A program made the position numbers and the translations under genes. Below are positions 2,289-36,074 of a stretch of DNA of 37,049 bases, one piece after another. Source of the stretch: Candidatus Eiseniibacteriota bacterium. GTDB lineage: Bacteria > Orphanbacterota > Orphanbacteria > Orphanbacterales > Orphanbacteraceae. Location: contig JBDROZ010000091.1 in the NCBI GenBank assembly GCA_043809585.1, forward strand, positions 1 to 37,049, in the 5' to 3' direction. The first letter of the stretch is position 1. Every line of letters begins with the position of its first letter. Under the pieces are notes generated by a model. That model searched no databases, was not told where the DNA came from, and was given only the letters and a program-made list of their open reading frames with translations.

Positions 2289-2294
2289 TCGTTC

Positions 2295-16377: not shown

Positions 16378-18505
16378 AGAAGTTCAATACTCCGAACCGT
16401 CCTCTCCCGCGGACCGGGAGGAGGGCGATTTCGCCTCTGTCCGACAAGCGCTTCGAAAGCTCCTCCGCCCACCCGGCGTAGCCGTCGGGGAAGAAGAGAA
16501 TCCCTCGTGATTGCCCCGCCTTGTGGTAGTACGGAACGGGGCGATTGGACCTCAGTTCCCTCTCGATGCGATCAAAGACCGACTCGACCATTCCCGCGGT
16601 TTGGAGGGCGCCCGCATCTCCCAAGTACCTCTTCTCGACGAAGTGCTCGCTGACCCGATCCCGAACCCACACGAGAAAGCCGTCGGGGTCTTCTACGAAA
16701 TCGGGCAGGTTCTCTTTCGCGAGCCTCGCCGATACGGAAGTCGCGATCTCTTCGACCCGGTGATCCTCGGGCTCGAGCTCGAGGAGCCGGATCGCCTTTC
16801 GAACGACCTCGTCCGAGTAGGCCTTCGCCAGTTCTCTGATTCTCTCGTGATCCACGACCGAGATGGCTTCCGTCTTCTCCGCGAAGCTCCGGAGGTAGGT
16901 GAGAAACGCGCCGAGCCGCCCACGGAATCGACCGACCCGCGCCGCGGCCCTTTCGACGGTCTCCTCGATGAACGAGAGCCGCTGCTGGTGCTCATTCGCG
17001 AGAAAGAACCGGCGAATTCCATCGGATCGATCCGAGAAGTCCCGCCGAAGTTTCAATTTGCTCCGGTGAAAGAAGAACGCGCAAACAACCGTATAGAGCA
17101 GGGCGCCCAGCAGAGTGAATACGATGAGGCGGGGGAAGAGGGAATAGTCACGAATCAGCGGGATCTTCTGTTGGTAATGGCGGAGAAGAAGCATCGCGAT
17201 GATCGCGAGAGCGGGCCAGACGTAAGCGAGCCACCGGGGCCTGAGAAATCGATCCGCACGGATCTCGCGAACCTGCTCCCATTCCGTCCAACCGACCCGA
17301 TGACGAAGCTTGCCTGTCAGGGTCGCCCTCGCCTTCGCGATCCAATCGCGGCAGTGCGTGGAAAGGCGTCCTGCTCCTCCCTCTACGACGAGTATCCCCA
17401 ACACGTTGTGAAGATCTTTCGGCCAGAGACGCCCCGAGTTCCCGGCCCCCCTCACCCGATCGATCGTGGAGCCCAAGAATCGGGCTGTCCAGCCCGGAAC
17501 GCCTCGGAGGCCCTCCCGGTGGCGCTCCGAGACATCGGCGCCCGCCTGCATCATTCTGGACGCGTAGTCTCGGAGGCCGTTCCGGAGCTTTCGTTCCACA
17601 TCTTCGTAGTCCGCCTTCTTGCTCGATTGGGTCGAGAAGAAGCGGAGGTCATCGGTCGACACGTTCGGGTGGTCGGGAAGGGTCGGCCCACGCTCCCGTA
17701 TCAATTCGCCCGAGATCTGCTCGAGGGCCTTTTCGGCGAGGGCGTTCGCCAACTCGACATCCGATCCTTCCTTCATGGTCTCGGCCGTGGCAAGGAGGGC
17801 GAGAGCCCGCGGATAGTTGGCGTCTACCGCCGCGAGCCGGAATGCCTCGAGAAGATCCCGGCCGGGATCGAAAACGGCCGCACCCGGTATGATCCTTCGT
17901 CCGAGACTCGCGCCTTGGAGGAGGGGTTCCAGGGTTTGTTCATGGGGAGAAGCCGAGTTCACGAGGAGGTCGATAATCGTGAGGGCCGTGTCGCGAACAC
18001 GGGCCGGCGCCACCGGATGGCCGCCGGCGGGGTTTCTCTCTTCCACGAGAATCGGGACGAAGGGAAAGTCGCGGCGAAGTTCACAGGCGGCTTTCTCGTC
18101 TTCCTCGGCGAGTTCCGGGGCGATCAGGATCACCGCCCCCTCGCACGACAGTCCGAGAGCCCGGGCGCCGGCGCAGGCCTCCCGCAGCGAAGCCCAGAGG
18201 GCGTCCCTGGATCCGTCGCTCCCATCGAATACGAAGAGAAAACGGATCACGAAGTGCTCGAGGCCGGCGCTTCCCCCGATGAACGTATCGCCCCCGGCCT
18301 CCGCGATCGTCTCCACTCGAGCGCGGAGAAGGTCCCAGCTTTCGCGTAAAGAGCTCTCGTCGTATCCTCGGGCCAAGACGACGAACGGGGGGTCGTGCGC
18401 CTCTGATGCCTCCCGATAGGCGTCGTCCACGAGCGAACGGCCGGTCTCCGGATCCGGGACCGCCCTCACCGGCACGATGATGGTCGGACGAACCTCCCAG
18501 GGCAT
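16349..18505 (-). CDS. Membrane protein (2 TM, helical/coiled-coil regions), possibly with an inactivated tubulin-like N-terminus
   Basis: 718-aa ORF tightly coupled to both neighbours. Two hydrophobic helices (WLAYVWPALAIIAMLLL; LIVFTLLGALLYTVVCAFFF). Confidence 0.75.
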   Translation of the reverse strand: MPWEVRPTIIVPVRAVPDPETGRSLVDDAYREASEAHDPPFVVLARGYDESSLRESWDLLRARVETIAEAGGDTFIGGSAGLEHFVIRFLFVFDGSDGSRDALWASLREACAGARALGLSCEGAVILIAPELAEEDEKAACELRRDFPFVPILVEERNPAGGHPVAPARVRDTALTIIDLLVNSASPHEQTLEPLLQGASLGRRIIPGAAVFDPGRDLLEAFRLAAVDANYPRALALLATAETMKEGSDVELANALAEKALEQISGELIRERGPTLPDHPNVSTDDLRFFSTQSSKKADYEDVERKLRNGLRDYASRMMQAGADVSERHREGLRGVPGWTARFLGSTIDRVRGAGNSGRLWPKDLHNVLGILVVEGGAGRLSTHCRDWIAKARATLTGKLRHRVGWTEWEQVREIRADRFLRPRWLAYVWPALAIIAMLLLRHYQQKIPLIRDYSLFPRLIVFTLLGALLYTVVCAFFFHRSKLKLRRDFSDRSDGIRRFFLANEHQQRLSFIEETVERAAARVGRFRGRLGAFLTYLRSFAEKTEAISVVDHERIRELAKAYSDEVVRKAIRLLELEPEDHRVEEIATSVSARLAKENLPDFVEDPDGFLVWVRDRVSEHFVEKRYLGDAGALQTAGMVESVFDRIERELRSNRPVPYYHKAGQSRGILFFPDGYAGWAEELSKRLSDRGEIALLPVRGRGRFGVLNFYEREIDHGT

Positions 18506-18514
18506 TCTCGTCCC

Positions 18515-21418
18515 CTAGAATTCGAATACCGCGGTGGAATAGGCTTCCTGTTCGATCGCCCATTCGACGGTCTTCACGTCCCGGGCGTAAACTTCCTTCA
18601 GGCTCTTCGCCGTCTTCGGGTTGTCTCTTTTCTCCTCGAGCGCCTTCTTGAGGGCGGTGAAGATCTTCTTTCTTTCCTCGGGCGGCTGCTTTCTCCAGAC
18701 CCGGGTCGTATCATCCGACACGGCGGCCCGGGTCTCCGTCGGCTCGGAAACGAACCAGTCGATCACGTTTTCCCGTCCCCGAAGACCGGTCTCGAGGTTG
18801 TTTTGCCGGTACTTGTAAACGGCGCCCGCGATCCGAATGACCTCGAAGTGTTCGGCCAATAGGAAGACGAGCCGCGCGAAGCTCCGGCGGTCCTCGGAAA
18901 CCTCTTTTTCGGTGATACTCTTGTCGAGGAAGATCTCCCGACCCTTTTCCTGGGCCCAGACGGCGCTGTCCCTCCAAGTCCGGTTCGCGACGAGATCGTC
19001 GGGCACGAAGCCCGCGAGAACGGCGAAGAAGGAGACCTCGTAGGGATTCCCCGGCATGCGGGGATCGTTCGAATCGATCTTGAGCTCGTTCCCCATCCTC
19101 TCTCCGCCGGCGCCCGCGGACATGTATTCCGACAGCGAGGGAGCGTCCTTGCCGGATTTGCCACTGAGGACCTTTTCGTAGAACTCATTCCAGGCGTTCT
19201 CGTTGTAGAGCATGTAGCTGTGAGTTTCCGACCGGGCCGTATCCCGTAGAGAGGCGAAGGGGGCCGCGATGCGCGACGTTTTGGCCAGGAGATCGGTACA
19301 GTAGCTCTCGACGTCTCTTCCGGCCTCCGAGGCTTCTCGATCTATCGCCTGCCACACCGTCATGTCGACGGAGGACTGGAAACTGCCCTGCAGGGAACGA
19401 AGCATCTCGGCGCGGAGAGAGAATCCCCAATTCAGACGAAGCTTCGGGGTGAGATCCCCTCCCGTCTCGATGAAATCGAGGAGCCTCTCGACGACGAACC
19501 GTCCCAAAACCGTCCGAATTCGACCGCGGGCGACCTCCATCTGAGCCGCGAACTCGGGCTCGGAGGCCAGCTTCTTGTAAGCCGTCTCGGCGACCCCCTC
19601 CTGTCCCAGAACTTCGACGACTACTTCCGTCTTGACGTAGATATCGTTGTCCTCGAAGTCGGGGAAGGCCGAGTTCTGCAGACAATCACGAAGAGCCTGA
19701 ATGGCGAGCAGGAACGTATTCTGGAGGCGGGCATCGAGGTTCTCGACGTGTGCGATGTCCGCCGTCAGAGTCGCTTCTCTCCAGTGCGCGCCCAGGAGGG
19801 TACCGACGGACTTCTCGAGGTCTTCCTTCGAGGAGGCGCGCCGCACGCGATGAAGGAAGGACTCGTAGGTCTTCCTAAAGCCCTCGAGATCCTGGGCCAT
19901 CCGGCGCTCCGCGCTTTTCGATCGCTCCTGCTCTTTGTTCCTCTTCTTCGTGAGGTCTTGAGCCGCCGCCTGCAAATGCCCGGAGAGGGAGCGAAGCATG
20001 GCGTCGAGGGCGCCCCACGGAAGGGGCCGGTCGCCCGAAATCCGGGAGAGAAGACCCTCGCGAAGTTCTTTCCAGTCCGATTCGAGCTCCGGGTCCGTGT
20101 TGGCACTGATGTGTTCGTTGACCTGAGACTTGAAACGCTCCCACTCGGTGAGGACCTGCTCGCTGACCTGATGATAATTATCCGAATCGGCTCCCTCGAT
20201 CGCCGATCCGAGCTTGGAGGCCAGCTTGGCGGGAAGCTCGAGCGTCCTTACCGCTCCGAAACGGCGGATCGGCTTGCGGTAGTCCTGCGACAAGAGGGTC
20301 TCACGGAGGGAGTTCCAGACCTCGGACCCGACACCGTGACCCAGCTCGACGACATCCTTGTTCGTGAGTCCGTCCGAATCCCGGAGGTAGTCTTCGATGA
20401 CCAATCTCGCCAGCCGGTCTTGGTGCCTGAGAATCGGATATCGGAGAATCGATTTGCCTCCCGCCCCGAGGGGGTCCACGTTCGGCTTCTCCGCGAGTCC
20501 CATCGCGATGTTGATGAGGATCGGCTGCTCGCTGCTGAACTCGAGATCGAACAGGAAGTCCGCCGCGAGCTGCTCGTATTCGGTGAAATGATCGAGGAAC
20601 TGGCCGTGGGCGGAGCTGCCGTCCACGAGATAGAGAAGATCGAACGGCTTCGGTGGATCGGCCACGGCCTCCAGGGGCCTCGGATCGTCGAGGAAGAACC
20701 GGTAGCTGTACTTCGTTTCTCCGCACAGCACTTTTCGCGTCCAGAACGAGTTCTCCCAGAGGAAGGCGTACGTGTTCGCCTCGAAATAGCGATGGGCCCC
20801 CTTGGTCTTGCCGACCTGTGTTCCGGGGAGAAGGGCGATTCCGACGATACGGATGTCCCGAATGCCTTCCCTGTCGAAGAGCCAGCGGACGTAATGGGCG
20901 AGCGGGATCATGATCCCGGCGCCGGTTCCGCCGCACAGAGAGGCCGCGAGAAAGACCGTCGGCGTAGAGCCGGCCTCCGCCTGGACCCGTTCGACGGCCA
21001 TCGCGCTCTGGTGTGCGGAGAGGAGCACGTCTCGAATGAGCGAATCGAGGGGGTCGTAGGATCGGCGGTTCAGGTGATAGATGAGCCCGAGCTTCCCCTG
21101 GGGGCGGCGCTGTCCGAGTCCCGCGGTTCCGACATAGGTGGCGCACTTGTGCAGCGGTATGGGCCACCAGCTCGTGTCGAAGTCCTTCTCCTGCAATTCG
21201 CGAACATAGTCCGCGGGAGAGAACTTTCCCGTCCAGCAGTACTGGGAGCGCGACTTCATCTGGTCGTGCCAGATCTCGCCGTCGAATCCGAAAACCTTGT
21301 AGATGTACTGGGCTTCTTCGGAGTCCTTTCCGTAGAAGTCGACGATTTTGTCGTGGAGCTTGTTCGCCACACCGATGCCGGTGCCGCCGACGCCTATGAA
21401 GTACTTGGGTTGAGGCAT
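18515..21418 (-). CDS. FtsZ/tubulin-like GTPase (Tubulin_2 / FtsZl type) with long helical C-terminus
   Basis: FIGVGGTG, GLGQRR.G, tubulin signature SLCGGTGAG, EANTYA, PFDLLYLVD, coiled-coil middle region. RBS AAGGGGAG. Confidence 0.9.
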   Translation of the reverse strand: MPQPKYFIGVGGTGIGVANKLHDKIVDFYGKDSEEAQYIYKVFGFDGEIWHDQMKSRSQYCWTGKFSPADYVRELQEKDFDTSWWPIPLHKCATYVGTAGLGQRRPQGKLGLIYHLNRRSYDPLDSLIRDVLLSAHQSAMAVERVQAEAGSTPTVFLAASLCGGTGAGIMIPLAHYVRWLFDREGIRDIRIVGIALLPGTQVGKTKGAHRYFEANTYAFLWENSFWTRKVLCGETKYSYRFFLDDPRPLEAVADPPKPFDLLYLVDGSSAHGQFLDHFTEYEQLAADFLFDLEFSSEQPILINIAMGLAEKPNVDPLGAGGKSILRYPILRHQDRLARLVIEDYLRDSDGLTNKDVVELGHGVGSEVWNSLRETLLSQDYRKPIRRFGAVRTLELPAKLASKLGSAIEGADSDNYHQVSEQVLTEWERFKSQVNEHISANTDPELESDWKELREGLLSRISGDRPLPWGALDAMLRSLSGHLQAAAQDLTKKRNKEQERSKSAERRMAQDLEGFRKTYESFLHRVRRASSKEDLEKSVGTLLGAHWREATLTADIAHVENLDARLQNTFLLAIQALRDCLQNSAFPDFEDNDIYVKTEVVVEVLGQEGVAETAYKKLASEPEFAAQMEVARGRIRTVLGRFVVERLLDFIETGGDLTPKLRLNWGFSLRAEMLRSLQGSFQSSVDMTVWQAIDREASEAGRDVESYCTDLLAKTSRIAAPFASLRDTARSETHSYMLYNENAWNEFYEKVLSGKSGKDAPSLSEYMSAGAGGERMGNELKIDSNDPRMPGNPYEVSFFAVLAGFVPDDLVANRTWRDSAVWAQEKGREIFLDKSITEKEVSEDRRSFARLVFLLAEHFEVIRIAGAVYKYRQNNLETGLRGRENVIDWFVSEPTETRAAVSDDTTRVWRKQPPEERKKIFTALKKALEEKRDNPKTAKSLKEVYARDVKTVEWAIEQEAYSTAVFEF

Positions 21419-21452
21419 GATACTCCCCTTTCCGGCCGTGCCGTCGAAGCTC

Positions 21453-22874
21453 CTATCCGGAGGAATACTCCGCGCGATACTCTTCGTATTCGATGTCGGC
21501 GTAGCTGCCGAGTCGCACCTTTGGGCCGGTGAGCTCCTCGCCGTCCACCTTCAGGCCTTTTCGTTTCCTGTGCAGGATGACGTCGCCCGACCAGGTCGCG
21601 GTGAGGACGGCGACCACGCCGCCCGTTTCGCCGAAAGGAACGCCTTTCCGCGGTCCCAGCGAGATGCGGTGGCCGCAGAGTCGCGCCCGATTCTTCAGCC
21701 GGTAGTCGATCTCCCCCGTGGATATGGTCTGCTTGCGGAACTTCGGAAGAGCGAGGCAGGCCAAGAGCACGAGAATCAGGAGCAACAGGAGGGCCTGAAG
21801 CCAGCGGGGGAGGTCGAGGATCCACGACTTGACCCGCTGCCAGAGGGGGGGCTTCGATACCTTGATCTTCACCGGTACGTGGACGACCACGCGTTCATCG
21901 CACTCGAGCCCGGAGGTCTTCGGTGTGATGCGGACCTGGAGCTCGATGGTCTCCGATCTTGTCCCGATGGGGAAATCCAGGCTCAGATCTTTCTTCTGGC
22001 CCTGTTTGGTGAACCGCATTTCGGTCGGTGAAAGGGAAACGCCCGAGCCGCCGTCAAGGGCGATGTCTTTCGGCTCTCCGGGGGGAAGAGCGTGCGCCGC
22101 CTTCAGGGTGATTTCAGCTCGCTGTCGGCATTTCTCGGCGGGAATCCTCCCGTCCGGGTTCGCCTTCACCTCGATCTCGTCGAGGTAGTAATTCACATCT
22201 TCGAATCGGAGGATGGATCGCGTGATCTGTTCGGAAGCGGCGGGGGCTTCGACGACCTCGATCTCCTCCGGGATCTCCGAGGCGTCCAGCTCGGATCCGG
22301 GCAGTTGGACCAGATACACTCCCACGCCGTCGTTCCGGACGATACCGCCGGCGAACTCGTCTCGCATGACCGACTTCCAGTCGTTCGGCTCGGCGGCATC
22401 CGGGGGAGGATCGTGCTTTCCGTCCGTGAAGATGTAGACTTCGCTTCCGCCGAGGTCGTCCCCGGCCACCTCCCGGATCCACCGGGCGGCGTGGTAGACC
22501 GCACCGGTCAGGTTGGTATACTGGCCGTTCGGAGGATCCTGGCGGAGTGCCTGGATCGTCTGCCGAATGCGATCTTGCCCCCGAACGTCGAACTCATCCC
22601 TCTTTACCGTCTCGTGATCGAATGTGAAGACCGCGCAACGGATCCCGTCGTCGAGGTGCGCGGCATAGCGATTCTCGAGATCCGTGAGCAACCTCTCGTA
22701 CATATTGCCGCGAAGCATGCTCTTCGACGTGTCAATGACATAGGCGACCCGCTTCGGTTCGTCGTAGACCTTGTGGGTGGCCGGGGACCGCTCGGTTGAA
22801 TCTTCACAACCGGAATGGGCAAACAGGATGGAGAGCAGGGCGAGAAGGGAAGGGAGGTGACGTGGGAGCTTCAA
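21453..22874 (-). CDS. Membrane-anchored von Willebrand factor A domain protein
   Basis: MIDAS DxSxS (VIDTSKSM), YTNL, FTDGK. N-terminal lipoprotein-like signal (..LFAHSGC), C-terminal TM, short FHA-like tail. TTG at 22874 lies 8 nt after GGAGG; the start is uncertain. Confidence 0.85.
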   Translation of the reverse strand: MKLPRHLPSLLALLSILFAHSGCEDSTERSPATHKVYDEPKRVAYVIDTSKSMLRGNMYERLLTDLENRYAAHLDDGIRCAVFTFDHETVKRDEFDVRGQDRIRQTIQALRQDPPNGQYTNLTGAVYHAARWIREVAGDDLGGSEVYIFTDGKHDPPPDAAEPNDWKSVMRDEFAGGIVRNDGVGVYLVQLPGSELDASEIPEEIEVVEAPAASEQITRSILRFEDVNYYLDEIEVKANPDGRIPAEKCRQRAEITLKAAHALPPGEPKDIALDGGSGVSLSPTEMRFTKQGQKKDLSLDFPIGTRSETIELQVRITPKTSGLECDERVVVHVPVKIKVSKPPLWQRVKSWILDLPRWLQALLLLLILVLLACLALPKFRKQTISTGEIDYRLKNRARLCGHRISLGPRKGVPFGETGGVVAVLTATWSGDVILHRKRKGLKVDGEELTGPKVRLGSYADIEYEEYRAEYSSG

Positions 22875-23036
22875 AGTGCACGCCTCCATTGGTATTGAAC
22901 TCCTGGCGCTCCGATATCGCAGCGGCACTTCCGTGGGCCCGCAGAGGATGCGGCCCGGCCCTCCGGCCACGCCAACCAACACATTGAAAATTAATGAGTT
23001 GGGAGAGCGCCGGACCGAAGATACCCTTGTATGGAT

Positions 23037-23429: not shown

Positions 23430-25112
23430 TCAGCCGATCAGCTTTTTGATCACCCAAGAACCGCGCCAGAGCAGTACGAGAGAAATTATGATTCCGAGAA
23501 GTAACGCGGCGGACCCGAGACGCGCAACGGCACTCCACCAGGTGCTGTGAGTGATAGTCAGGGTGGTGCCGGCAACGCTCAGCAGCGCAACGCCGAGAAC
23601 GCTCAGGTTCAGGTAGGTCAGGCGCCCCAACCGACGGTTCACCGTTGCGAGACTGAACTCGTGAAGAGCACGAATCTGTTGATCCACCTCGGAGAAAAGG
23701 TGTTCATTGTCCATGTTCCTGTTCCATAGCGAAAACATCTCGATGCCCTGTTCTTGAGCCGTTATCTCGCAGGACCAGTACTTGGTATGAAACCGAAGAA
23801 AATCGGATCGAAGGCGCTCAATATCGTCTCCGACAGACCTCTTGTCAAGATCTTCGGGCGAACTAACTCTCTGAGCAATCATGGTGCAACGGTGTGACAG
23901 ATCGAGAAGCCCCGCCCGATAGACGAGGAGGAGACACGCCATCTGAAAATACATAGAATCGAAATGCTTCAGTAATACGGATCTCGTGAAGCCCTCGGGG
24001 TCTGCGGCGCCGATGGGGGGAGTGGATCGGGGGCCGTCCGCGTGGAGGAGAAAGACCCCACTACATCGGGTGAACCCCATATATGTGCTCTCGTCCCGGT
24101 ATCGGAGATAGAGCCAATTGCTTAGAAAGCTGTCCCGGAGCCCCGGATTCGCGACGTAGTCTTTCCCTGCGGGATCGACCGCCAAGAGACGGAGAAGGGC
24201 CGACCGAAATAATTCGGGCTCGTCCGTAAGCTTTCCGAATACGTTCTCCGGGCTGGAAGCGAAGTCGGGAAGCTCGCTGGCACCGCCATCGATGGCTGTA
24301 TCGCCCCTGTCCGCGAGCACAAAGGAATGGACGAATCCACGCTCATCCAGGATGGGCGTGCTCTCCGAAACATCCAACCCGAGATCAACGGCGATTCTGT
24401 CGAGCCAAAACTGGAAATGGTTGCCCACGTATGGAGTTTTCGACGCTGACGAAAAGACCTCGTCGAACGAGTCGCCGAAGTCCTCCATCGCCTGCACCTT
24501 GTCCGGGGACTCGATTGAAATGGCCTCCGCCAGTTCTCGCTGGGCCTTTTGAATTCCCGCCCAGCTTCCTGCCGGCACATTATTGGGTGTCGGGCCATTC
24601 ACGGGGAAGGTGCTCGTATCGATAAACGAGGGGGCGCGGCGGCGGACCAGGTTATTGAGGTCGAGGAGGTCGTCGAAAGAGAAATCACCCGATAAACCGA
24701 CGCCCTCGGCGATCCGGTAATCCCAGTAGACCGAGAAAGACAGGACGGCGACACCGAGATCATAGAACATGACATGGACATCCGCCAGACCGAGGATTTT
24801 CTCAATCGCCTGGTCGACATCATTTCGAGGAGGCAGTTTCACGCGGAACTTCCAACCCCGAATCTTCTCATTCGGGACCTCGTACGCGAGCACGGATCTC
24901 TGTTCTTTAATAGGGCCGAAGAGAAGGTCTCGAGCATGGGGATGGAAGTAAACATACTCAGCGTAGGTTCTCGGGTCGCTTTGGCGAATCTGTTCCGTGG
25001 GCTGGAACATTGCGTCCGCCTTCTTGTGTTCGGGATTCTTCGCGCGAAGGCGTTCAAAGGATCCCGGGGGAAGGCAGAAAGGATAAAAGAAATGGGTCTT
25101 TATGAGCCTCAT
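23430..25112 (-). CDS. corA: CRISPR-associated CorA-like membrane effector
   Basis: Follows cmr6 directly. HFFYPF, YAEYVYFHP, LDERGFV, HFDSMYFQM, EITAQEQGIEMF, and two C-terminal TM helices, the pattern of type III-associated CorA. Confidence 0.82.
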   Translation of the reverse strand: MRLIKTHFFYPFCLPPGSFERLRAKNPEHKKADAMFQPTEQIRQSDPRTYAEYVYFHPHARDLLFGPIKEQRSVLAYEVPNEKIRGWKFRVKLPPRNDVDQAIEKILGLADVHVMFYDLGVAVLSFSVYWDYRIAEGVGLSGDFSFDDLLDLNNLVRRRAPSFIDTSTFPVNGPTPNNVPAGSWAGIQKAQRELAEAISIESPDKVQAMEDFGDSFDEVFSSASKTPYVGNHFQFWLDRIAVDLGLDVSESTPILDERGFVHSFVLADRGDTAIDGGASELPDFASSPENVFGKLTDEPELFRSALLRLLAVDPAGKDYVANPGLRDSFLSNWLYLRYRDESTYMGFTRCSGVFLLHADGPRSTPPIGAADPEGFTRSVLLKHFDSMYFQMACLLLVYRAGLLDLSHRCTMIAQRVSSPEDLDKRSVGDDIERLRSDFLRFHTKYWSCEITAQEQGIEMFSLWNRNMDNEHLFSEVDQQIRALHEFSLATVNRRLGRLTYLNLSVLGVALLSVAGTTLTITHSTWWSAVARLGSAALLLGIIISLVLLWRGSWVIKKLIG

Positions 25113-25151
25113 GTCTATTTCCCCGTCGGCAGTTTCATGCAGAGGGTCGAC

Positions 25152-26264
25152 CTAGTCGGAACCGGCGACGTTTCGCAGGTCCCGGTAACGTTTCTTCTTG
25201 GCGTCGGTTCCCCCTTCCCACTTGGCAATTACTTTTTGTCTCGGACCTGAGAGTAATGCCCGGGCATAGTTCCTCTTTTCGTCGGTATCCGGAAGGGCCA
25301 TGATGAAATCGAACATCTTTCGCAATCGACCTTGGGAATCGGGAACTCGGTTTTCCAGGGATTGCCAATAGGTCTCTATTTCGGGATCCTTTATGGACCC
25401 GAGGCACCTTTCCAGGGCTTTCGCTGCCGGGTCCGAAGATTCCAGCCGACCATAGCCGCTCGTCGTCTTCGCCCCGATCCCTTCCTCCTCGAGTGCGAGG
25501 CATAGAATATCGGTGGCCCTCTTTCTCCAGTCGTCGGCACCCTGGATGGCAACCAAGAAGCATGCCCCGGGAGCGACGGTCAGGTACGAGACGGGGTTGG
25601 GGTCGTCCCAATCGGCGGGAGGAGGCGGGTTGCTGCTCGCGCCATAGTACTCTGGATGATGGACAGTAATCACGTCACGCAGGAGTGACTTCTTGGACCT
25701 GGGATCGGGGATGAGCCATGCGTCGTGGAAGACGATTCCTCCCGCCCCTTCAGCGTGACCGAACAGGGTGTCATACGAAGTGAAACCCCATTCCTTGTCC
25801 AGCCCCATCTTGAGCCGATCATCTTGCTTTGTCGGGTTGCTTCCCCGGTAGTCGGCATGCAGCGATCCGAAACGGCTCAGGCAATATCGTCGGGCGAGTC
25901 CCTTGAGGGCCGTGCCGGGGAGTAGGGGAACTCCGTAGGTTTGGTGGAGGGTGATGGAAGTTTCGAGCACACTATCGGAACCGATTCCGACGATAATCCG
26001 CGAGAGTGCCTCCATCGGAGTCAAGGCGACTTTATTCTCCGCTTGAAGCAGATTGTGCCATCGTTGAAAAGCCCTGGAGTAGAGGGCGCCCGATGGGCAC
26101 TGAATGTCGTTCAGGACTTGGTCAATGGCATCTCTTTTCGCCGCCCCCTTGTCTCCCAACCTCTCGACCCATCGATCGAGCCACAAGCCGGGATGGGTCG
26201 ATGGGGTGGGAGCGATGCCGGCCAACGCCCGGCGTCTCGAGGAGACTTCGCGGGTCGGGCTCAT
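25152..26264 (-). CDS. cmr6: Type III-B RAMP protein Cmr6
   Basis: ETSITLHQTYGVPLLPGTALKGL, FHDAW, DVITVHH..YY, DWDDPNPV, GIGAKTTSGYG. Confidence 0.95.
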   Translation of the reverse strand: MSPTREVSSRRRALAGIAPTPSTHPGLWLDRWVERLGDKGAAKRDAIDQVLNDIQCPSGALYSRAFQRWHNLLQAENKVALTPMEALSRIIVGIGSDSVLETSITLHQTYGVPLLPGTALKGLARRYCLSRFGSLHADYRGSNPTKQDDRLKMGLDKEWGFTSYDTLFGHAEGAGGIVFHDAWLIPDPRSKKSLLRDVITVHHPEYYGASSNPPPPADWDDPNPVSYLTVAPGACFLVAIQGADDWRKRATDILCLALEEEGIGAKTTSGYGRLESSDPAAKALERCLGSIKDPEIETYWQSLENRVPDSQGRLRKMFDFIMALPDTDEKRNYARALLSGPRQKVIAKWEGGTDAKKKRYRDLRNVAGSD

Positions 26265-26641
26265 GCCCCGTCTCCCTCGTCAGTCTTCTTGATTCCGAGA
26301 ATCGCCTCGGAAAACCTCGCGTAGTACACGGCCGCCGCCAGGGCGATCCGAGTGGCTTGCATGTAGGCCGGGTAATCGGCGCCCCTTAAGTAGTCATAGA
26401 CCGACCCCGTCCCTTCCTCGGGGAGCACAAGCTTCCCCAAGTGGTCGAGAAAGGCCGTGTTGGCGTCATTATCACGACTCGCGTAGAAAGCGACGGTTTG
26501 CATCAGTCCGTTGGTCAATACGAGGCCGGGAAAGCGGAGCCACAGCCGACCGTAGTCCTTCTTCCAGGTCCGGTCGCCCACGGAGTTGATGTGGTCGAGC
26601 GCCGTGCCGGCCAGTTTCTGGGATCGCGTTTGGTTCGGCAT
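26261..26641 (-). CDS. cmr5: Type III-B small subunit Cmr5
   Basis: 126 aa, Y...FPGLVLTNGLMQTVAF, YMQATR; lies between cmr4 and cmr6. Confidence 0.92.
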   Translation of the reverse strand: MPNQTRSQKLAGTALDHINSVGDRTWKKDYGRLWLRFPGLVLTNGLMQTVAFYASRDNDANTAFLDHLGKLVLPEEGTGSVYDYLRGADYPAYMQATRIALAAAVYYARFSEAILGIKKTDEGDGA

Positions 26642-26650
26642 CCTCCCCTC

Positions 26651-27535
26651 CTACGACTTCACCAGTCGTGCCCGGCCGTACCCGACAGTTGCCTTGCCAC
26701 CCAATTGAAGAATGCACTCCTTGCAATTGTCGTTGCTCTTGTCGCCGGTGAAGGCAAAGTTGATGATCTCGTTCGGACCGAGATTGATTCCTTCTTTGTA
26801 CGATTGTTCTGCGAGGGCGATTCCCCAGAGAATGCTCTCCGCGGGCAGGGCCTCCTCATACCAGAGAGCACCTTCCTTGACGACTTTCAGGTTCTCTTCA
26901 AGACGAATGCGGGCCCGAACCTCGAGAGCATTTTCGTACAAGAACGAAAAGACATCGTCTCCCAAAATGGCGAATCGTCTTCGAAACTCGGCCTGCCAGG
27001 GCTCATCGTCGGGAAAGACGAGTTTGCCGATTCGCTCCGCCCACTCCTTGGCAACCCCCTGCTCGTCCGGGCGCCGTTCGAGATCCAGGTCCTCCAGTAG
27101 TATCTTCTGGCCGTTCTCCGGCAGGAGGAGGGATTCAGAGTCTACGACATGGGCCTGAAAGCCGTTCAGTTCGATCGGTTTCCAATTCGGCAACTCCATG
27201 TCCCTCGCGAGGCGATGGAGAACGATCGGCGACGTGGTCCAGGCGAAGGTACCGCAGATGGATCGGACGGGGAGACAGAGGAGGCGGGCGTCGGAGAAGG
27301 TGATGGCCCCGGCATGCTCGTCCGATTTGTCCGTGTCGGGGCCGAATACGGCCACGAAGTCATCCGTTGGGGAGGAGTGCTTCGCCCGGAGCACCCCTTT
27401 GATCCCGCTCCCATAGTAGACCGGGAGCCTGGTGACCACCTCCCGGGCGATCGGGAGATCCACCGGACCGACGCCGGAACCGATGCCGGCGTGCAGCGGA
27501 GACAAGGCGTGGATGAAATATGTGCAGACCTTCAT
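26651..27535 (-). CDS. cmr4: Type III-B RAMP protein Cmr4 (Cas7, target RNase)
   Basis: SPLHAGIG, VDLPIARE (catalytic Asp), GSGIKG, DARLLCLPVRS, ALWYEE.LP.E, QLGGKATVGYG. Start ATG 27535. Confidence 0.96.
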   Translation of the reverse strand: MKVCTYFIHALSPLHAGIGSGVGPVDLPIAREVVTRLPVYYGSGIKGVLRAKHSSPTDDFVAVFGPDTDKSDEHAGAITFSDARLLCLPVRSICGTFAWTTSPIVLHRLARDMELPNWKPIELNGFQAHVVDSESLLLPENGQKILLEDLDLERRPDEQGVAKEWAERIGKLVFPDDEPWQAEFRRRFAILGDDVFSFLYENALEVRARIRLEENLKVVKEGALWYEEALPAESILWGIALAEQSYKEGINLGPNEIINFAFTGDKSNDNCKECILQLGGKATVGYGRARLVKS

Positions 27536-27552
27536 GAAAGATCCTCCATTCT

Positions 27553-28710
27553 TCACTCGGTGCGCTCGGACCATACTCCCCAGAGCGCCAGGCCGAAGCC
27601 ATCCAGGCGATCTTGAGGGTCGTCACAGACGGACTGAAGCCAGGTCTTCCGCGTGAGATCCGAGGGATTCCCCGAAATGACTCGGAAGTAGTATACACTG
27701 CCCGCAGGCGCCAACCGGCGAAGCGGCTTAGGCCCCTTTCGCTGCAGGTCCCATCCCCCGAGGGACTCCCATCGTGGGACACAGGCGCCGACGAGCTCGA
27801 GGACGGAATCGCCGTGGATCCCCGGTGGCGTGCCGCGAAGGGGCTCTTTCTCGGAAGTCTTGTCCGGACCCATCCATCCCGGGCACCAGCCCCCGTTAAA
27901 GATTCCAGGTGTGGCGAGCTGCATGCGCAAGAGTTCCGAGTTCTTCAATGCGTCATCGAGCGCGGAGGGGGGGGCTGTTGGCCAAGGGTCGTCCGAGTCG
28001 CACGGCTCGAAACGCGCCATCCCTCCATCGCCGCCAATCCGATGCATCGAGTCCTCCACGGGAGAATGGGTGCGGACGAGCAGCTCCCCACTCCTGACGC
28101 CCGATATGCCGGGAGCCGGCGATTTCACCATCAGAGAGACCATGTCCGTGACGTAGAGCATGCCCTCTTCCGAAGTTTCCGTGGCGTTGTTCGTCTTGTG
28201 CCTAGTCCTCGAATCCACCGAGGGGGTGCACCACCAATCCGCATTGATATTCGTCTTCTTGAGTCGGCCCGTGAGCCAGTCGTAGGTGGCGGACGCGGCG
28301 AGGAAACTACCGAAGGCGTCCGGTTTCGCTGAGACGGAGGAATGACCGATCGGACGGAGTTGATGAGGGAGATTCACGCCCTGTGATGATTCGAGAGCGA
28401 CCGGGCCCATATCCTGGATTCGACCGTCCCGGATCCGCAGGTCCGCCGGCGATGGGAAGTACACGACGGTCTCAACGAAAAGAAGGGGCCCGAGAACCGG
28501 CCATGTCCGGATCTCGGTGACAGCGCTCGGATCACCGAAATCCATGCCCCTCTGCTTTGCCAGCAAGGTGCGCAGAGTCCCGGTGGTTACCGAAGGGTAG
28601 GGGAATTCCCTGCTCCGGGCGCGGGCTCCCCCTCCCAAACCGTAAGGACGAGTGTCGCGAAACATGAGCGAGCCGTGGGGCAAGATCCGAACGGTGTGCA
28701 TCTTCATCAC
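27553..28710 (-). CDS. cmr3: Type III-B Cmr3 (Cas5)
   Basis: LMFRDTRPY, PYPSVTTGTLR, IGGDG, LATPGIF..GW, GGWD, PAGSVY, DGFG. Confidence 0.94.
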   Translation of the reverse strand: MMKMHTVRILPHGSLMFRDTRPYGLGGGARARSREFPYPSVTTGTLRTLLAKQRGMDFGDPSAVTEIRTWPVLGPLLFVETVVYFPSPADLRIRDGRIQDMGPVALESSQGVNLPHQLRPIGHSSVSAKPDAFGSFLAASATYDWLTGRLKKTNINADWWCTPSVDSRTRHKTNNATETSEEGMLYVTDMVSLMVKSPAPGISGVRSGELLVRTHSPVEDSMHRIGGDGGMARFEPCDSDDPWPTAPPSALDDALKNSELLRMQLATPGIFNGGWCPGWMGPDKTSEKEPLRGTPPGIHGDSVLELVGACVPRWESLGGWDLQRKGPKPLRRLAPAGSVYYFRVISGNPSDLTRKTWLQSVCDDPQDRLDGFGLALWGVWSERTE

Positions 28711-30417
28711 CTACCTCAGGTGGGCGGCATGAAAGTTCTGAGCAATGATCATCTCGTTGGCCAGAGCCGCCAATGAGCTTACGTCGGACACGAGGTTAAT
28801 GATGAAATCGCGGTTCTCCTCGGCCAGTCTTCCCGCTTTCGGTCTTTTCTTGCCCAGGAGCCGCCCCACCTCCTTGCGGAGAGAATCGCCTTTGTCGAAT
28901 GCGTCGACTCCGGCATATTCGCCGGCCATCCTGTATAGATCACGTGACAGGCCCTCGGGGATGAGTTCGCTTTCGAGCAATTCGATCCAGCGGCCGAACC
29001 GCTTTGCCGGGTCGGCGGCCCAAGAGAGGCACACGTTCGTTGGCGATCCGGAGCGCTTCTCGAGCAGGACGGCAAGGGCGCCTTTCCGCTGCTTCGCGAT
29101 GCCATTCAGGGCCTCACCCGCGTGCTTGACCATGGTACCCGCCATGGGGGTGAGGATGTGAGTGATCGCGATGCCTACCGACAGCTCGCCCCCGACCTGT
29201 CGGAGGAATTCAGAGTGCAGTTCTTCCGCGCAGCCAATGGCCTGATCGACCGGCGAGAAGGCGAGAAGATCATCCCCACCGGCATAGACCACGACGCCGC
29301 GATGGCCTTCGACTATTTCCGGGACCTTGGACGCGAAGAGAGACAAGCTCCTGCCGAAATTCACGTGCTGCTCCGCGCTGGAGCAATCCCGAGTCCGTTC
29401 TCCCATTCCGTCGCCATCGGCGCAGATAGTGGCTACGTACGGAAAGGGGGTCCGTCCGATCTTTTTCAATAACAGAAGAATCGAATCGGCCAGACGAGCG
29501 GCTACTTTCTTCTCCTCCGGCTCGAGAGCGTCGAGCTGCCGGCTCTTGCCGTTGGCGATGGTCCGGGCGCGCGATTCGAGGAGGAGCTCGGCGTCATATG
29601 GGAAGGAACCATAGATCGGAGGGTGTTCAACCTTGGACACCAGACCGAGGGCCGATAGCTCGCGCATTCTCTCCAGCAGCTTCGTGACCTCCTCGGGATG
29701 ATCGTGTTCCGCCCATCCGATCCATGAATCGAGCGCGATGCGGGATACGGGGGGAAAGCGGCCGGATCCGACGCGCTTCACGACTCCCGGAAGATCGAGC
29801 TGCTCCGCCCTGTTGATACCCGCCTGAAAGCGTGCCCGTTCATGAGACGCACCGGGACCGAGCACCGTCTCACGGCGTCCGTCGAGAGAAGACTTGGGCA
29901 CTCCCGCGCTGAGCGGATTCGGGGAGAAGTCGGTAAGGGTCTCCCGCGCCCGGAAGAGGTTTTCCAATTTCTGGCGGGAGACATTGTAGTCCTTACCGAG
30001 AGGAGACCACGCTGCGAAGAATTCGACCAGGTCCGAGTCCCGCTGGGCGGTCCACCGGGGATCCTCGACGCCAATGTCCCATCGCTTCTTCGCGAGTAGT
30101 GCCCGGGTGTTGTCGGCGGCCTCTTTCCATATGTTGTGGGCCGCTTCTTTCGCGACATCCGCTGCCGACCGAGGGTCTTTTCCCTCGGGGATGATGGCGA
30201 GGACTTCATCGGAGACCGGTACTTGGTCCTTATCCGCACCCGATGGAACGGCCGGGACGATGAGCTCCGCCTCGAACTCGGCTTGGATTCGGAACGCCGC
30301 GGCACGGGCCATCCGGGCGACGTGCTGGGAGGAGAAGAAGAGATCCCGCGTCCGTCGAGAGGAATCGATGAACTCCGCCACCGGCCCCACGGAGAACATG
30401 AGGAGGTGGCCGCTCAT
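28711..30417 (-). CDS. cas10: Cas10/Cmr2, HD-less, intact cyclase palm
   Basis: SVGPVAEFI..RRTRDL, KSSLDGRRE, YVATICADGDGMG, VYAGGDD, SVGIAITH. 568 aa with no N-terminal HD domain. Confidence 0.95.
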   Translation of the reverse strand: MSGHLLMFSVGPVAEFIDSSRRTRDLFFSSQHVARMARAAAFRIQAEFEAELIVPAVPSGADKDQVPVSDEVLAIIPEGKDPRSAADVAKEAAHNIWKEAADNTRALLAKKRWDIGVEDPRWTAQRDSDLVEFFAAWSPLGKDYNVSRQKLENLFRARETLTDFSPNPLSAGVPKSSLDGRRETVLGPGASHERARFQAGINRAEQLDLPGVVKRVGSGRFPPVSRIALDSWIGWAEHDHPEEVTKLLERMRELSALGLVSKVEHPPIYGSFPYDAELLLESRARTIANGKSRQLDALEPEEKKVAARLADSILLLLKKIGRTPFPYVATICADGDGMGERTRDCSSAEQHVNFGRSLSLFASKVPEIVEGHRGVVVYAGGDDLLAFSPVDQAIGCAEELHSEFLRQVGGELSVGIAITHILTPMAGTMVKHAGEALNGIAKQRKGALAVLLEKRSGSPTNVCLSWAADPAKRFGRWIELLESELIPEGLSRDLYRMAGEYAGVDAFDKGDSLRKEVGRLLGKKRPKAGRLAEENRDFIINLVSDVSSLAALANEMIIAQNFHAAHLR

Positions 30418-31889
30418 AGGACGACCTCCGTCATGTTGACTTCACCCTCTCGGAGCTTCAGCCACTCGAAGAAGGCCGTCCGGACTCTGTCGCCGGGCAA
30501 GGCGCTTGCCACAGCCGGCTCAGTCAATGCGGAGAAGCCGACCGTGTCGCCCGGCGCGGAAATAACGTCGAACCGGGCGGCGGAACCACGGACTTCATTA
30601 TCACCGTCGAAGAGGACGACCTCTCCGTCGGGATACGTGCCTTCGAACCAAAGACCGGCCGGGCGCCATGAGCCGTCGGCGAAATTGATCGGTCGGACGA
30701 CAAGAGGGCTGGAGAGTCGCTCGTTCACGGTTCCCGCGCGTTTCCATTTGAGAGTGAGCTGGCGCCTTTTCCAAGCAGGATTCCCTAGATGGTCCACGAC
30801 GGCATTCCCGTCCCTGTCCCTTCGAGCAGAGAATCCCGGTTCCGGATTCGGATAGTTCGTACTTTGGTTCTGCTTGTCCTGGAACTTGATCACGATGGGG
30901 AGCCCGAACGAAGACCTAGGCCACGTGGGTCTGTCCGTCAGTGCTATCGATGCCGTATGTTGCCATGACGTAAAGGGGAGAGGAGGCGTCAGCAGCAACC
31001 GGATCTTGTCCGGCTCGGGCCAGCTCGTGCGACCGGGGTGGTTTCCGATACCGCCGGTTCGAGGTACTCTCTGGCGGAAATCAACGATCCAGGCCAGGCT
31101 CTCCCGCCATGCCGGCTCCGGGTCTCCAGCGGCGCCCGCGGAAGACTTGACGATTACACGTGAGGATCGAAGGTGCGGCACAACAGTAGGGGCGGTCGGG
31201 GAGGGCGTATCCTCGAGCCAGCTACCCAAGGCGGCTGGCGTCTTCGGCCTCCAAAAGCCCGGTTCTCTGAGGTTCGGGAGTCGCGTGAATCCCAAGGCGC
31301 CTGCGCCGCGCCTCGTTCGTGAACCGTAACCGCCGAAGGCGACCCAGGCTCGAAGCGCCTGGCAGACATGATCCTCGATCGGTCTGCCGGCGACCTCCAT
31401 GGATGGGGGAAAGCGAAGCGAGAGTTCGAACTCCACGCCACTACGGAGGGAGCATCCCTGCACGCCCCTCGACGGGAAAAAGGCATAGTTCGTGATGTCA
31501 TTGGATCCTGGGGGGGGCTGCGACTCTCCACGGTTTAGAAGTCGCAGCCTCACCTCCACGGCGGATGGAAGACTGTTCCCTCCCGATCCCCCCTTCCGCC
31601 CCGTGGAGTCGCGCGCCTGAGTTCCCCCCCAGGCCTTGAACTCCGCTTGACGCATCTCTTCGAGGTCCGAGAACGCGGCGCCGATGGTGGCGCGCCACCA
31701 GAAGCGGAGATGCCCTCGAATGGACGGTGCTCGGATGGGATCCAGGTCGTCCGATCGACCGGCTTCGGCGCCCCCACCGTAGACGGGAGTCGCCACGTGG
31801 ATTTGGCATCGAATACTCTGCCTGTCGTCCTTCCGACTCTCAGGCAGACCACCTTGTGGCGGGGGGGCGGGTGTTCTCACGGGGCACAT
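30414..31889 (-). CDS. cmr1: Type III-B RAMP protein Cmr1
   Basis: TPVYGGG, IRAPSIRGHLRFWWRA, FGGYGSRTRRGAG, WPEPD, FGLPI, RLSSPL. Confidence 0.95.
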   Translation of the reverse strand: MCPVRTPAPPPQGGLPESRKDDRQSIRCQIHVATPVYGGGAEAGRSDDLDPIRAPSIRGHLRFWWRATIGAAFSDLEEMRQAEFKAWGGTQARDSTGRKGGSGGNSLPSAVEVRLRLLNRGESQPPPGSNDITNYAFFPSRGVQGCSLRSGVEFELSLRFPPSMEVAGRPIEDHVCQALRAWVAFGGYGSRTRRGAGALGFTRLPNLREPGFWRPKTPAALGSWLEDTPSPTAPTVVPHLRSSRVIVKSSAGAAGDPEPAWRESLAWIVDFRQRVPRTGGIGNHPGRTSWPEPDKIRLLLTPPLPFTSWQHTASIALTDRPTWPRSSFGLPIVIKFQDKQNQSTNYPNPEPGFSARRDRDGNAVVDHLGNPAWKRRQLTLKWKRAGTVNERLSSPLVVRPINFADGSWRPAGLWFEGTYPDGEVVLFDGDNEVRGSAARFDVISAPGDTVGFSALTEPAVASALPGDRVRTAFFEWLKLREGEVNMTEVVL

Positions 31890-32026
31890 GGGCCTCTCCT
31901 TGTTCCAAGTTCAACAGGCCTCTCTATATTACTTCATTCTCTCTACATCAGTTCCTTTCGTTCACGCTCGGCCCAAGGGGCCCCTGAGACCGACCCTCCA
32001 CACAATATAAAGGAGTCGGCCATGGA

Positions 32027-32846
32027 ATCTCAATCCCTTATCCGGCCTTTCCCTCTGAGACTGGAACATCGAGTGGCTTCCCACGCTTCAGGTGATCAAG
32101 TCGCAATCCCTTATCCGGCCTTTCCCTCTGAGACCTCGGTTGATGGTGCTACAGAAACTGCGCCAAGAAAGTCGCAATCCCTTATCCGGCCTTTCCCTCT
32201 GAGACGCTGCGCGCACGGGCTCATTCCTGTCATGTGGCCAAAGTCGCAATCCCTTATCCGGCCTTTCCCTCTGAGACCCACAAGCCCATCCCGCGCAATG
32301 GCCTGAATCGAATGTCGCAATCCCTTATCCGGCCTTTCCCTCTGAGACACGTGGACGTACATCATCATCGCCGAGGTCGTCAAGTCGCAATCCCTTATCC
32401 GGCCTTTCCCTCTGAGACTCCCCGGGTACTGCCTGGAAATCATTCGGAGACTGAAGTCGCAATCCCTTATCCGGCCTTTCCCTCTGAGACACCTGGATCA
32501 CCTGAACCAGCTCTTCTCGAGGTTCCGCAGTCGCAATCCCTTATCCGGCCTTTCCCTCTGAGACGCAAGCTCTTCGACCTCAAGCTCACCTACCCGGGGT
32601 CGCAATCCCCTGGCGGCCATTCCCTCTGAGACCTTCAACTGGTACTTCATGCAGGAACACTTCGCTGAGTCGCAATCCCTTATCCGGCCTTTCCCTCTGA
32701 GACACGGAGATGACATCTGCGTTCGCGGCCATTGGATCGGGTCGCAATCCCTTGTCCGGCCTTTCCCTCTGAGACCACAACGCAGGTCGATCCGAAGTTC
32801 TGCCCGCAGAGGTCGCAATCCCTTATCCGGCCTTTCCCTCTGAGAT
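32027..32846 (-). CRISPR. CRISPR array 1: 12 repeats, 11 spacers (34-39 nt)
   Basis: 35-nt repeat GTCGCAATCCCTTATCCGGCCTTTCCCTCTGAGAC (+ strand). Minus orientation inferred from the ATTGCGAC 3' end and the degenerate left repeat. Variant repeats at 32027, 32599, 32741, 32812. Confidence 0.97.
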
Positions 32847-32938
32847 TCCTGAACCCGCTCGCCGAAACGGAGAAGAAGGCGGGCGAGCCGATCGCGAAGT
32901 CGATCATCCTCGATATCGTAAACCACCACGTAAAGCAT
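32843..32938 (-). pseudogene. cas2: 5' fragment of cas2 truncated by a CRISPR repeat
   Basis: MLYVVVYDIEDDRLRDRLARLLLRFGERVQES is a canonical Cas2 N-terminus. It runs straight into the repeat in place of the usual VFE... Confidence 0.88.
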
Positions 32939-35835: not shown

Positions 35836-36074
35836 TGGACGCCTCCAGGGGCGGGGAGCGCGATGGGGTTACGACATGGAAAGGGCGGGGTCTTTTCCCT
35901 TCTCAATATATGGGGCGATGCGGGCGGTCCCCCGCGGATGAACCAACCCTGCTCCTCCCCTCCCGCCGAAGCACCCAAGACCGCACCGCACCCCGTGGGC
36001 TGCCCCCGCGGCTCGTCTCGAGCCTTATCCCGCTAGTCCCTCGACAAATGGACGTTGATCGCCCGCGACGCGAA

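Follow-up and report, generated by a model that had tools for sequence, protein, structure and literature searches.

A type III-B CRISPR module of Candidatus Eiseniibacteriota with a CorA-like effector and a Cas10 predicted to conjugate S-adenosylmethionine

Results

Gene content of the type III-B locus

A 37,049-nucleotide stretch of DNA from Candidatus Eiseniibacteriota bacterium (positions 1 to 37,049 of contig JBDROZ010000091.1, GenBank assembly GCA_043809585.1; referred to below as the window) contains a type III-B CRISPR module whose Cas10 protein is predicted to conjugate S-adenosylmethionine (SAM) and whose last gene encodes a CorA-like membrane protein. On the minus strand, a Cas6-reverse transcriptase (RT)-Cas1 fusion, a cas2 remnant, CRISPR array 1, cmr1, cas10, cmr3 to cmr6, and corA form a single block that runs in one direction. 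The part of this block that comprises cmr1, cas10, cmr3 to cmr6, and corA spans positions 23430 to 31889 (minus strand), and two CRISPR arrays and the fusion gene adjoin it.

All six cmr genes were matched by Pfam or NCBIfam models beside the CRISPR arrays, as is characteristic of type III-B (Cmr) systems. The genes, all on the minus strand, are cmr1 (30414 to 31889; 491 amino acids [aa]; Pfam RAMPs and TIGR01894), cas10/cmr2 (28711 to 30417; 568 aa), cmr3 (27553 to 28710), cmr4 (26651 to 27574; TIGR02580, E = 2.1e-62), cmr5 (26261 to 26641; Pfam Cas_Cmr5), and cmr6 (25152 to 26264; TIGR01898, E = 2.4e-42). The assignment of cmr3 is based on Pfam Cas_Cmr3 (E = 1.5e-55), its NCBIfam score (98.4 bits) being below the cutoff of 100.4. 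The final open reading frame (ORF) of the operon (23430 to 25112, minus strand) encodes a 560-aa CRISPR-associated CorA-like membrane effector, recognized by PADLOC CRISPR-CorA models. When window ORFs (outside the operon, those of at least 150 aa) were scanned with Pfam, NCBIfam, and PADLOC models, no CARF, SAVED, Csx1/Csm6, NucC, or similar effector, no Csm6-2 gene, and no ring nuclease was identified, in agreement with a preliminary description of this DNA in which corA was named as the only effector gene.

An array search placed array 1, with 12 repeats, at 32021 to 32846 and array 2, with at least 14 copies of a repeat of about 35 nucleotides (GTCGCAATCCCTTATCCGGCCTTTCCCTCTGAGAC), at 36069 to 37031, where it reaches the end of the window. 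The 929-aa Cas6-RT-Cas1 fusion (32962 to 35751, minus strand; Pfam CRISPR_Cas6, RVT_1, and Cas_Cas1 and NCBIfam cas1) is a putative adaptation and CRISPR RNA (crRNA)-processing module. Between the fusion and array 1, a cas2 remnant (32834 to 32935, minus strand) was detected by tblastn with the Cas2 of a related locus (L004) and by Pfam and NCBIfam Cas2 models, which matched at positions 1 to 32 only. Just the first 34 or so residues are recognizable, and the sequence then continues directly into the first repeat of array 1. Relatives have an intact cas2 (for example, L004:16110-16400), and a weak Cas2-like match was also observed on another contig (C37) of the same genome.

Conserved motifs and acidic residues of Cas10

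The Cas10 protein matched Pfam families Cmr2_N and Cas10-Cmr2_palm2 as well as NCBIfam TIGR02577 (124.8 bits; cutoff, 79.4). It begins directly at the Cmr2_N motif and thus lacks an HD domain; upstream of the start, the frame stays open for only 8 codons. The catalytic GGDD motif occupies residues 380 to 383 (29269 to 29280, minus strand), in a column that was invariant or nearly so in 120 homologues, and a DGD motif occupies residues 334 to 336. The preliminary description of an HD-less Cas10 with GGDD was therefore correct, as were the codon positions it gave for two acidic residues, D70 in VSDEVL (30208 to 30210, minus strand) and E159 in ARETL (29941 to 29943, minus strand).

These residues were surveyed in the 120 closest Cas10 sequences, consisting of the query and 119 listed homologues. 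Column 70 contained Asn in 114 sequences and Asp in 6, and column 159 contained Lys in 114, Glu in 5, and Thr in 1, which bears out the statement that Asn and Lys are usual at these positions in related Cmr2 proteins. Within this set, the Asp/Glu pair was found only in the query and its four nearest homologues (P0006 to P0009). Across the window clade, both residues were kept in 8 of 8 members, which are about 37 to 57% identical and come from at least two phyla. The nearest Asn/Lys relatives were 31 to 38% identical to the window protein over its full length. One Cmr2 nested within the Asn/Lys clade (P0013) had Asp at column 70, Thr at column 159, and an unchanged Arg162, a state that could be an intermediate or an unrelated change.

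Equivalence to SAM pocket positions

Residues D70 and E151 of Bacteroides fragilis Cas10 flank the methionine moiety of SAM, correspond to N300 and R436 of Pyrococcus furiosus Cas10, and are absolutely conserved in Cas10 proteins of the CorA-1 cluster, according to passages of Chi et al. (2023; PMC10600005). The same source reports that the D70N/E151R double mutant had undetectable SAM-AMP synthase activity and made more pppApA, and a 2026 paper (PMC13294483) cites the B. fragilis Cas10 structure as placing the amino acid portion of SAM near D70 and E151. The biochemistry given as background in the preliminary description, an acidic pair in place of an Asn and a basic residue, is thus on record in Chi et al.

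The Cas10 of Bacteroides hominis (locus L070) matched Protein Data Bank (PDB) chain 9lq5_B across all 600 residues (1,301.5 bits) and is nearly identical to it. Counting along this alignment gave D70, E151, and D328/D329, the published B. fragilis numbering, and this agreement suggests that 9lq5_B is B. fragilis Cas10. In a joint MAFFT L-INS-i alignment, D70 of the window protein was placed on D70 of the B. hominis protein and E159 on E151. An independent profile-profile alignment (hhalign; 6 window clade versus 18 main acidic clade Cas10 sequences) gave the same two pairings (probability, 99.7%; identity, 18%). The proposed correspondence with the SAM pocket, for which a failure to align had been named beforehand as refuting, was thus recovered by two independent alignments. 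With GGDD intact and Asp and Glu at these two positions, the window protein has these sequence features of a SAM-AMP synthase of the B. fragilis type.

The comparison with P. furiosus that had been proposed at the outset was recovered in part. The group profile of the window Cas10 matched column 70 to the Asn of P. furiosus Cmr2dHD that has chain index 106, and R436 fell outside the HMMER alignment. This Asn would be N300 if the 677-residue chain begins at residue 195. The equivalence of E159 to R436 follows indirectly, since E151 and R436 are equated in the published comparison and E159 aligns to E151.

Residue state, CorA linkage, and Cas10 phylogeny

Cas10 genes located beside corA encoded Asp at column 70 in 53 of 53 cases and Glu at column 159 in 49 of 53. 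Among Cmr2 proteins not known to be linked to CorA, all 59 compared had Asn and Lys; 29 of these were close homologues, and 30 were from Bacillota (the best TIGR02577 matches from 401 genomes). CRISPR-type CorA was found in none of the five genomes carrying the Asn/Lys Cmr2 proteins nearest to the window clade, in which the search returned one weak match (22.7 bits) to the transmembrane (TM) part of CorA, on another contig. The four exceptions at column 159 (L005, L010, L027, and L044) had Tyr, Phe, or Gly and formed a separate clade with both CorA and the nuclease NrN present. This third, small CorA- and NrN-linked clade has Asp at the D70 column, its alignment near E151 is uncertain, and its Cas10 pocket may differ again.

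A Cas10 tree was inferred from 113 rows and 571 columns (LG+C20+F+G4 with posterior mean site frequencies, quick search, Shimodaira-Hasegawa-like approximate likelihood ratio test [SH-aLRT] support) after removal of three trait columns and of near-duplicates (P0006, L095, L110, L090, and L092). The window protein grouped with six others (L085, L003, P0009, L004, P0007, and P0008) in a clade of seven rows with 100% SH-aLRT support, which was nested in a 99%-supported set together with 31 Asn/Lys rows. Several more well-supported Asn/Lys lineages separated this clade from the main acidic clade of 46 rows, which includes the B. hominis protein and which, from its B. hominis and Clostridium members, we infer to be the published CorA-1 cluster. 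The tree placement, sought in the preliminary description, therefore puts the window clade inside the Asn/Lys Cmr2 proteins and away from the B. fragilis-type clade.

Well-supported branches forced at least two changes of the Asp/Glu label. Constraining all 28 Asp-bearing rows to group together cost 120.8 log-likelihood units and was rejected by the approximately unbiased (AU) test (P = 0.000335; 64-row subset, LG+G4), the group having been defined by trait but named after the tree was seen. Neither tree position nor this test thus placed the window protein in the CorA-1 Cas10 clade, in a tree in which many rows are of skewed composition and which includes no outgroup beyond Cmr2. The acidic pair of the window Cas10 apparently evolved independently of that of the B. 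fragilis-type Cas10. Because every other sampled Cmr2 lineage has Asn and Lys, acquiring the pair twice is far more parsimonious than acquiring it once and reverting both residues many times, and the occurrence of the same substitutions twice beside CorA argues for a functional role.

Only nine columns that were at least 85% conserved in Asn/Lys Cmr2 proteins were altered in the window clade, and these included Q14, N70, K159, and R162. The window protein has Ala at position 14 (codon at 30376 to 30378, minus strand), where Gln was present in 59 of 59 Asn/Lys Cmr2 proteins (in GPVQxFI), and Thr at position 162 (29932 to 29934, minus strand), where Arg was present in 58 of 59. The Q14, N70, and K159 columns were also altered in all 46 rows of the main acidic clade. 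In type III-D2 Cas10, the amino acid portion of SAM lies near residues 8 to 12 and Q186, according to parts of the 2026 paper (PMC13294483), a placement that would fit a contribution of the N-terminal Q14 motif to the pocket.

These columns also bear on the possibility that the product of the window Cas10 is still an oligoadenylate, cyclic or linear (for example, cyclic hexaadenylate [cA6]), and that this CorA subfamily senses it. Its descent from a lineage otherwise carrying the Asn/Lys residues typical of cyclic oligoadenylate (cOA) synthases would be in keeping with such a product, as would the failure to find NrN, a DEDD nuclease, or a lyase at five loci and in four genomes (see below), a kind of absence from which Hoikka et al. 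(2024; PMC11229360, as far as its relevant parts go) predict cA6 for another CorA clade. The reading is nevertheless unlikely, given that four residues invariant or nearly so in the 59 Asn/Lys proteins have been replaced, that two of the replacements are acidic and would repel a triphosphate, that the reverse changes shift the B. fragilis enzyme toward pppApA (reported in PMC10600005), and that the scanned window ORFs include no CARF, SAVED, Csm6-2, or ring nuclease protein.

The CorA effector

The corA product had no Pfam or NCBIfam match, even at an E value of 10, but matched the PADLOC CRISPR-CorA models nearly end to end (PDLC01174, E = 4.6e-57; PDLC01043, E = 1.9e-56), with residues 28 to 547 covering positions 30 to 433 of the 446 in PDLC01174. 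A profile built from this protein and two homologues retrieved 2,553 proteins at an E value of ≤1e-3 among 1.84 billion representatives, about eight of them close; several of the distant relatives pass the Pfam CorA model in their C-terminal part. A 38-sequence family profile (A3) that included the window protein matched Thermotoga maritima CorA chains in the stalk and TM1-TM2 region (E, ~6e-6), and the window protein as a single sequence returned only noise against solved structures. Hydrophobic C-terminal helices were read from the sequence at about residues 499 to 521 and 531 to 554, and in our reading of the family profile alignment the GMN position of the transporter is G-T-T. The PADLOC matches, the Pfam-passing relatives, and the transporter matches together indicate that the 560-aa ORF encodes a divergent CRISPR-type CorA.

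In a 55-sequence alignment, R157/R158 of the window CorA corresponded to R152/R153 of B. hominis CorA, and D256-E257-R258 corresponded to D219-D220-R221, in a numbering that agrees with that published for B. fragilis CorA. The R157, R158, D256, and R258 columns were invariant (55 of 55), and the D220 column contained Asp in 51 sequences and Glu in the four window clade members. Alanine mutants of B. fragilis CorA at R152/R153 and D219/D220 are reported to have lost immunity. In the CorA tree, a 12-row set with 98% support contained the window clade as well as the CorA proteins partnering the Cas10 group with Asp but not Glu.

Retention of these residues is relevant to whether the signaling arm has decayed, leaving RNA cleavage by Cmr4 alone and acidic substitutions that reflect neutral drift. 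The truncated cas2 and the failure to find either a degrader or a second effector would be compatible with decay. We regard it as very improbable in view of the invariant GGDD and DGD motifs, the D70/E159 pair kept throughout its clade, the family-invariant CorA residues that are retained, and arrays with at least 26 repeats.

The module in relatives and searches for messenger degraders

A genome scan with the CorA family alignment yielded 79 loci, and a metagenome scan added one further locus of the window subfamily (L120, a metagenome contig). The order cmr1-cas10-cmr3-4-5-6-corA was common to four loci besides the window: L085, in a genome from the same family as the window genome (57% identity in Cas10 and 53% in CorA; L119 apparently represents this contig again), L003 and L004, in Myxococcota metagenome-assembled genomes, and L120. 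What directly follows corA varied among them, being a CRISPR array in L003 and L004, an RT-Cas1 fusion in L085, and a convergent RT-Cas1 in L120. Loci of the main acidic clade have the order nrn-corA-x-cmr1-cas10-... instead. The collection held 10 species genomes from the window's phylum, two of which contained Cmr2; the lineage of the host is small and has been sampled poorly.

Pfam DHH did not recognize NrN, and profiles for NrN and the DEDD nuclease were instead made from CorA-neighbor genes, with the DHH motif confirmed in NrN. NrN was present at 48 of 80 CorA loci (as a CorA fusion at 19 of them) and the DEDD nuclease at 10 of 80; 22 of 80 had neither, many of these being cut by contig ends. 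Locus-level profile scans detected neither nuclease at the window, L003, L004, or L120. For L085, the negative result is based on the gene order, which leaves no room beside corA, and on the search of its whole genome (G007), which had no degrader match. Adjacent or fused NrN, DEDD nuclease, or SAM-AMP lyase genes were thus found at none of the five loci of the window module.

The search was extended to whole genomes. Among 29,541 six-frame ORFs of the window genome (97.5% complete), no NrN or DEDD match was obtained even at an E value of 10. A bona fide SAM-AMP lyase homologue (L078:14749-15171; PDB 9gad_A, E = 5.7e-51), used as a query, likewise matched nothing in this genome. Across the four genomes searched (G000, G007, G010, and G011), there was no match to the NrN profile, the DEDD profile, or the lyase protein; positive-control genomes were matched strongly (NrN, 5.1e-103; DEDD, 8.6e-73; lyase, 3.0e-93). 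The lyase search is the weakest of the three because it relied on a single query sequence.

A further possibility is that the window Cas10 attaches AMP to some acceptor besides SAM or builds a SAM conjugate longer than SAM-AMP, as type III-D2 does with SAM-AMP2; the messenger would then be new or different, and its turnover would either be left to housekeeping enzymes or not take place. The failure to find any of the three known SAM-AMP-specific degraders, an acidic pocket of independent origin, changes at R162 and Q14 that differ in detail from those of the main clade, and a long-branch CorA subfamily with Glu at the D220 equivalent would all accommodate such a messenger; type III-D2 already varies in its product (according to passages of PMC13294483), and Makarova et al. 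(2025; PMC12669027, in part) single out exceptions of this kind as worth searching for new messengers. Both SAM-relevant residues of B. fragilis Cas10 are exactly reproduced as Asp and Glu, however, CorA retains the RR and D-x-R motifs seen in CorA that binds SAM-AMP, and nothing positive points to another acceptor. We therefore judge this alternative improbable, if slightly less so than an oligoadenylate product.

Other genes of the window and of CorA loci

Immediately downstream of corA are four large genes that share one orientation (12820 to 22982, minus strand). They encode a VWA protein (21453 to 22982), a Tubulin_2-like protein of 967 aa (18515 to 21418), a 718-aa protein with no family match (16349 to 18505), and a DEAD-helicase/MrfA-Zn-binding protein of 1,185 aa (12820 to 16377), all on the minus strand, and may constitute a separate defense or conflict system. 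None of the four was found beside the module in L003, L004, L085, or L120, and on this ground the VWA and tubulin-like genes, which were considered as partners of the module, were rejected. At the other end of the window (156 to 4832, plus strand), a CHASE2-adenylate/guanylate cyclase gene (156 to 2288) is found near a gene for an MscS-like channel with a cyclic-nucleotide-binding domain (3204 to 4832), and the two look like an ordinary signaling pair unrelated to the CRISPR locus.

Other CorA loci showed further associations. L077 (L077:8261-10756) encodes an 832-aa protein in which an N-formylglutamate amidohydrolase (FGase) domain is fused to the CorA effector; since this locus has no NrN or DEDD match, the FGase domain may be an alternative candidate for messenger processing. 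In two Campylobacterota loci (L042:8678-9805 and L029:2013-3173), a gene for a Card1-like endonuclease-domain protein adjoins corA, lying directly upstream of it in L042. A weak match to the Card1 CARF domain was obtained in L042 only; these loci would combine an effector of the cyclic tetraadenylate (cA4) type with a presumed SAM-AMP effector. In three loci (for example, L045:11314-12059), corA is followed directly downstream by a gene pair for a HEPN protein and a minimal nucleotidyltransferase, which recalls the toxin-antitoxin (TA) module beside corA of type III-D2.

Discussion

Taken together, gene content, residue equivalence, and the SAM pocket columns indicate that the type III-B module of the window probably signals to CorA with a SAM-derived conjugate, most likely SAM-AMP, and not with a cyclic oligoadenylate. 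The SAM-AMP-type signal proposed in the preliminary description is supported as far as sequence analysis goes. In the pathway that we envisage, the Cas6 part of the Cas6-RT-Cas1 fusion would probably process the array crRNAs, which would then be loaded on Cmr1 to Cmr6, and a complementary foreign transcript, once bound, would switch on the GGDD palm site in the HD-less Cas10. Missing from the acceptor pocket are Gln14, Asn70, Lys159, and Arg162, which in cOA synthases would hold the triphosphate of the acceptor ATP, and Asp70 and Glu159 would be suited to SAM at its positively charged methionine end. Cas10 would then link the 3'-OH on the ribose of SAM to AMP derived from ATP. This messenger is predicted to bind the cytoplasmic domain of the CorA-like protein, where the conserved RR and D-E-R motifs are located, and CorA would disturb the membrane by means of its C-terminal domain, which has two helices of the CorA type, so that the infected cell would stop growing or die.

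Several observations weigh against this interpretation. The product is predicted from few residues, in a Cas10 that is about 18% identical to the B. fragilis-type clade and in which the local alignment around E159 is of low similarity, anchored mainly by an E/K-x4-F pattern. The window CorA clade sits on a long stem (1.68 substitutions per site in the CorA tree), so its ligand specificity may differ. An AlphaFold2 model of CorA from a 3-sequence alignment was poor (mean predicted local distance difference test score, 40.5) and gave the channel reading no structural support. None of NrN, the DEDD nuclease, or the SAM-AMP lyase was found at the five loci or in the four genomes. This matters because immunity by the reconstituted B. 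fragilis CorA system requires degradation of SAM-AMP, by NrN or lyase, as stated in parts of two reports (PMC10600005 and PMC12255297). Loci of type III-B with CorA typically encode cleavage enzymes, and exceptions have been flagged for study as sources of new messengers or nucleases, according to sections of Makarova et al. (2025). A CorA clade with no degrader is read as possibly activated by cA6 in the relevant part of Hoikka et al. (2024).

The closest functional counterpart is the B. fragilis Cmr-CorA-NrN system (Chi et al., 2023; PDB 9lq5 to 9lq8). Both systems have a full cmr1-to-cmr6 set, an HD-less GGDD Cas10 with Asp and Glu at the SAM pocket positions, and, as the sole recognized effector, a CRISPR-type CorA with RR and D-(D/E)-R motifs. 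They differ in Cas10 ancestry, the window protein belonging among the Asn/Lys Cmr2 proteins and outside the B. fragilis-type clade, and in gene order, with corA last in the window and nrn and corA first in the B. fragilis type. They differ also in the NrN of the B. fragilis system, for which no counterpart was found in the window module, in crRNA processing (presumably by the Cas6-RT-Cas1 fusion in the window and associated with an NYN ribonuclease in the B. fragilis locus), and in CorA length (560 aa versus about 490 aa in B. hominis).

Type III-D2 Cas10-CorA systems, which make SAM-AMP and SAM-AMP2 according to passages of PMC13294483, resemble the window module in having CorA at a locus with no NrN, DEDD nuclease, or lyase and, if our prediction holds, in a SAM-dependent messenger. 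As described there, they differ in an effector complex that contains Cas7x3 and Cas7-5, in recognition of SAM by E8 and Q186, and in a VapBC-like TA module beside corA that is proposed to degrade the messenger; the window module has no TA pair. The Actinomyces CorA clade predicted to be activated by cA6 (Hoikka et al., 2024) also combines CorA with a lack of NrN, DEDD nuclease, and lyase, but, in the part of that study concerned, it co-occurs with or is fused to Csm6-2, whereas the window has no Csm6-2 and an acidic, SAM-type Cas10. Finally, the HD-less Asn/Lys Cmr2 proteins of Planctomycetota, Bacillota, and others, presumed to be cOA synthases, share the domain layout, GGDD, and DGD of the window Cas10 but keep Q14, N70, K159, and R162, all four of which the window protein has lost. 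In the portions of the literature surveyed, neither an independently derived CorA-linked III-B Cas10 nor a III-B CorA lineage with no degrader was described; full texts and supplements may list such loci.

A more specific scenario is possible, though we hold it tentatively. Here, a descendant of cOA-type Cmr2 would have independently rebuilt its acceptor pocket (loss of Q14, N70D, K159E, and loss of R162) for SAM or another cationic acceptor and would drive CorA with no dedicated degrader. Either SAM-AMP turnover would then not be universally required for CorA immunity, or the messenger would be a different one, or a degrader would have escaped recognition.

The module is compact enough for reconstitution in a laboratory host. 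The change of Asn to Asp and of Lys to Glu apparently occurred twice in Cas10, each time beside corA, and this natural replicate supports the view that these residues set SAM specificity. In uncharacterized type III systems, the Asp/Glu pair may serve as a sequence marker from which to predict the type of messenger. When reconstituted, the B. fragilis and Clostridium botulinum systems confer CorA immunity strictly on condition that SAM-AMP is degraded, for a reason left unexplained in the relevant parts of those reports (PMC10600005 and PMC12255297). The III-B lineage described here, with five loci (two from a small, poorly sampled phylum, two from Myxococcota, and one on a metagenome contig) and with none of the three known degraders found, would provide a test case for that requirement.

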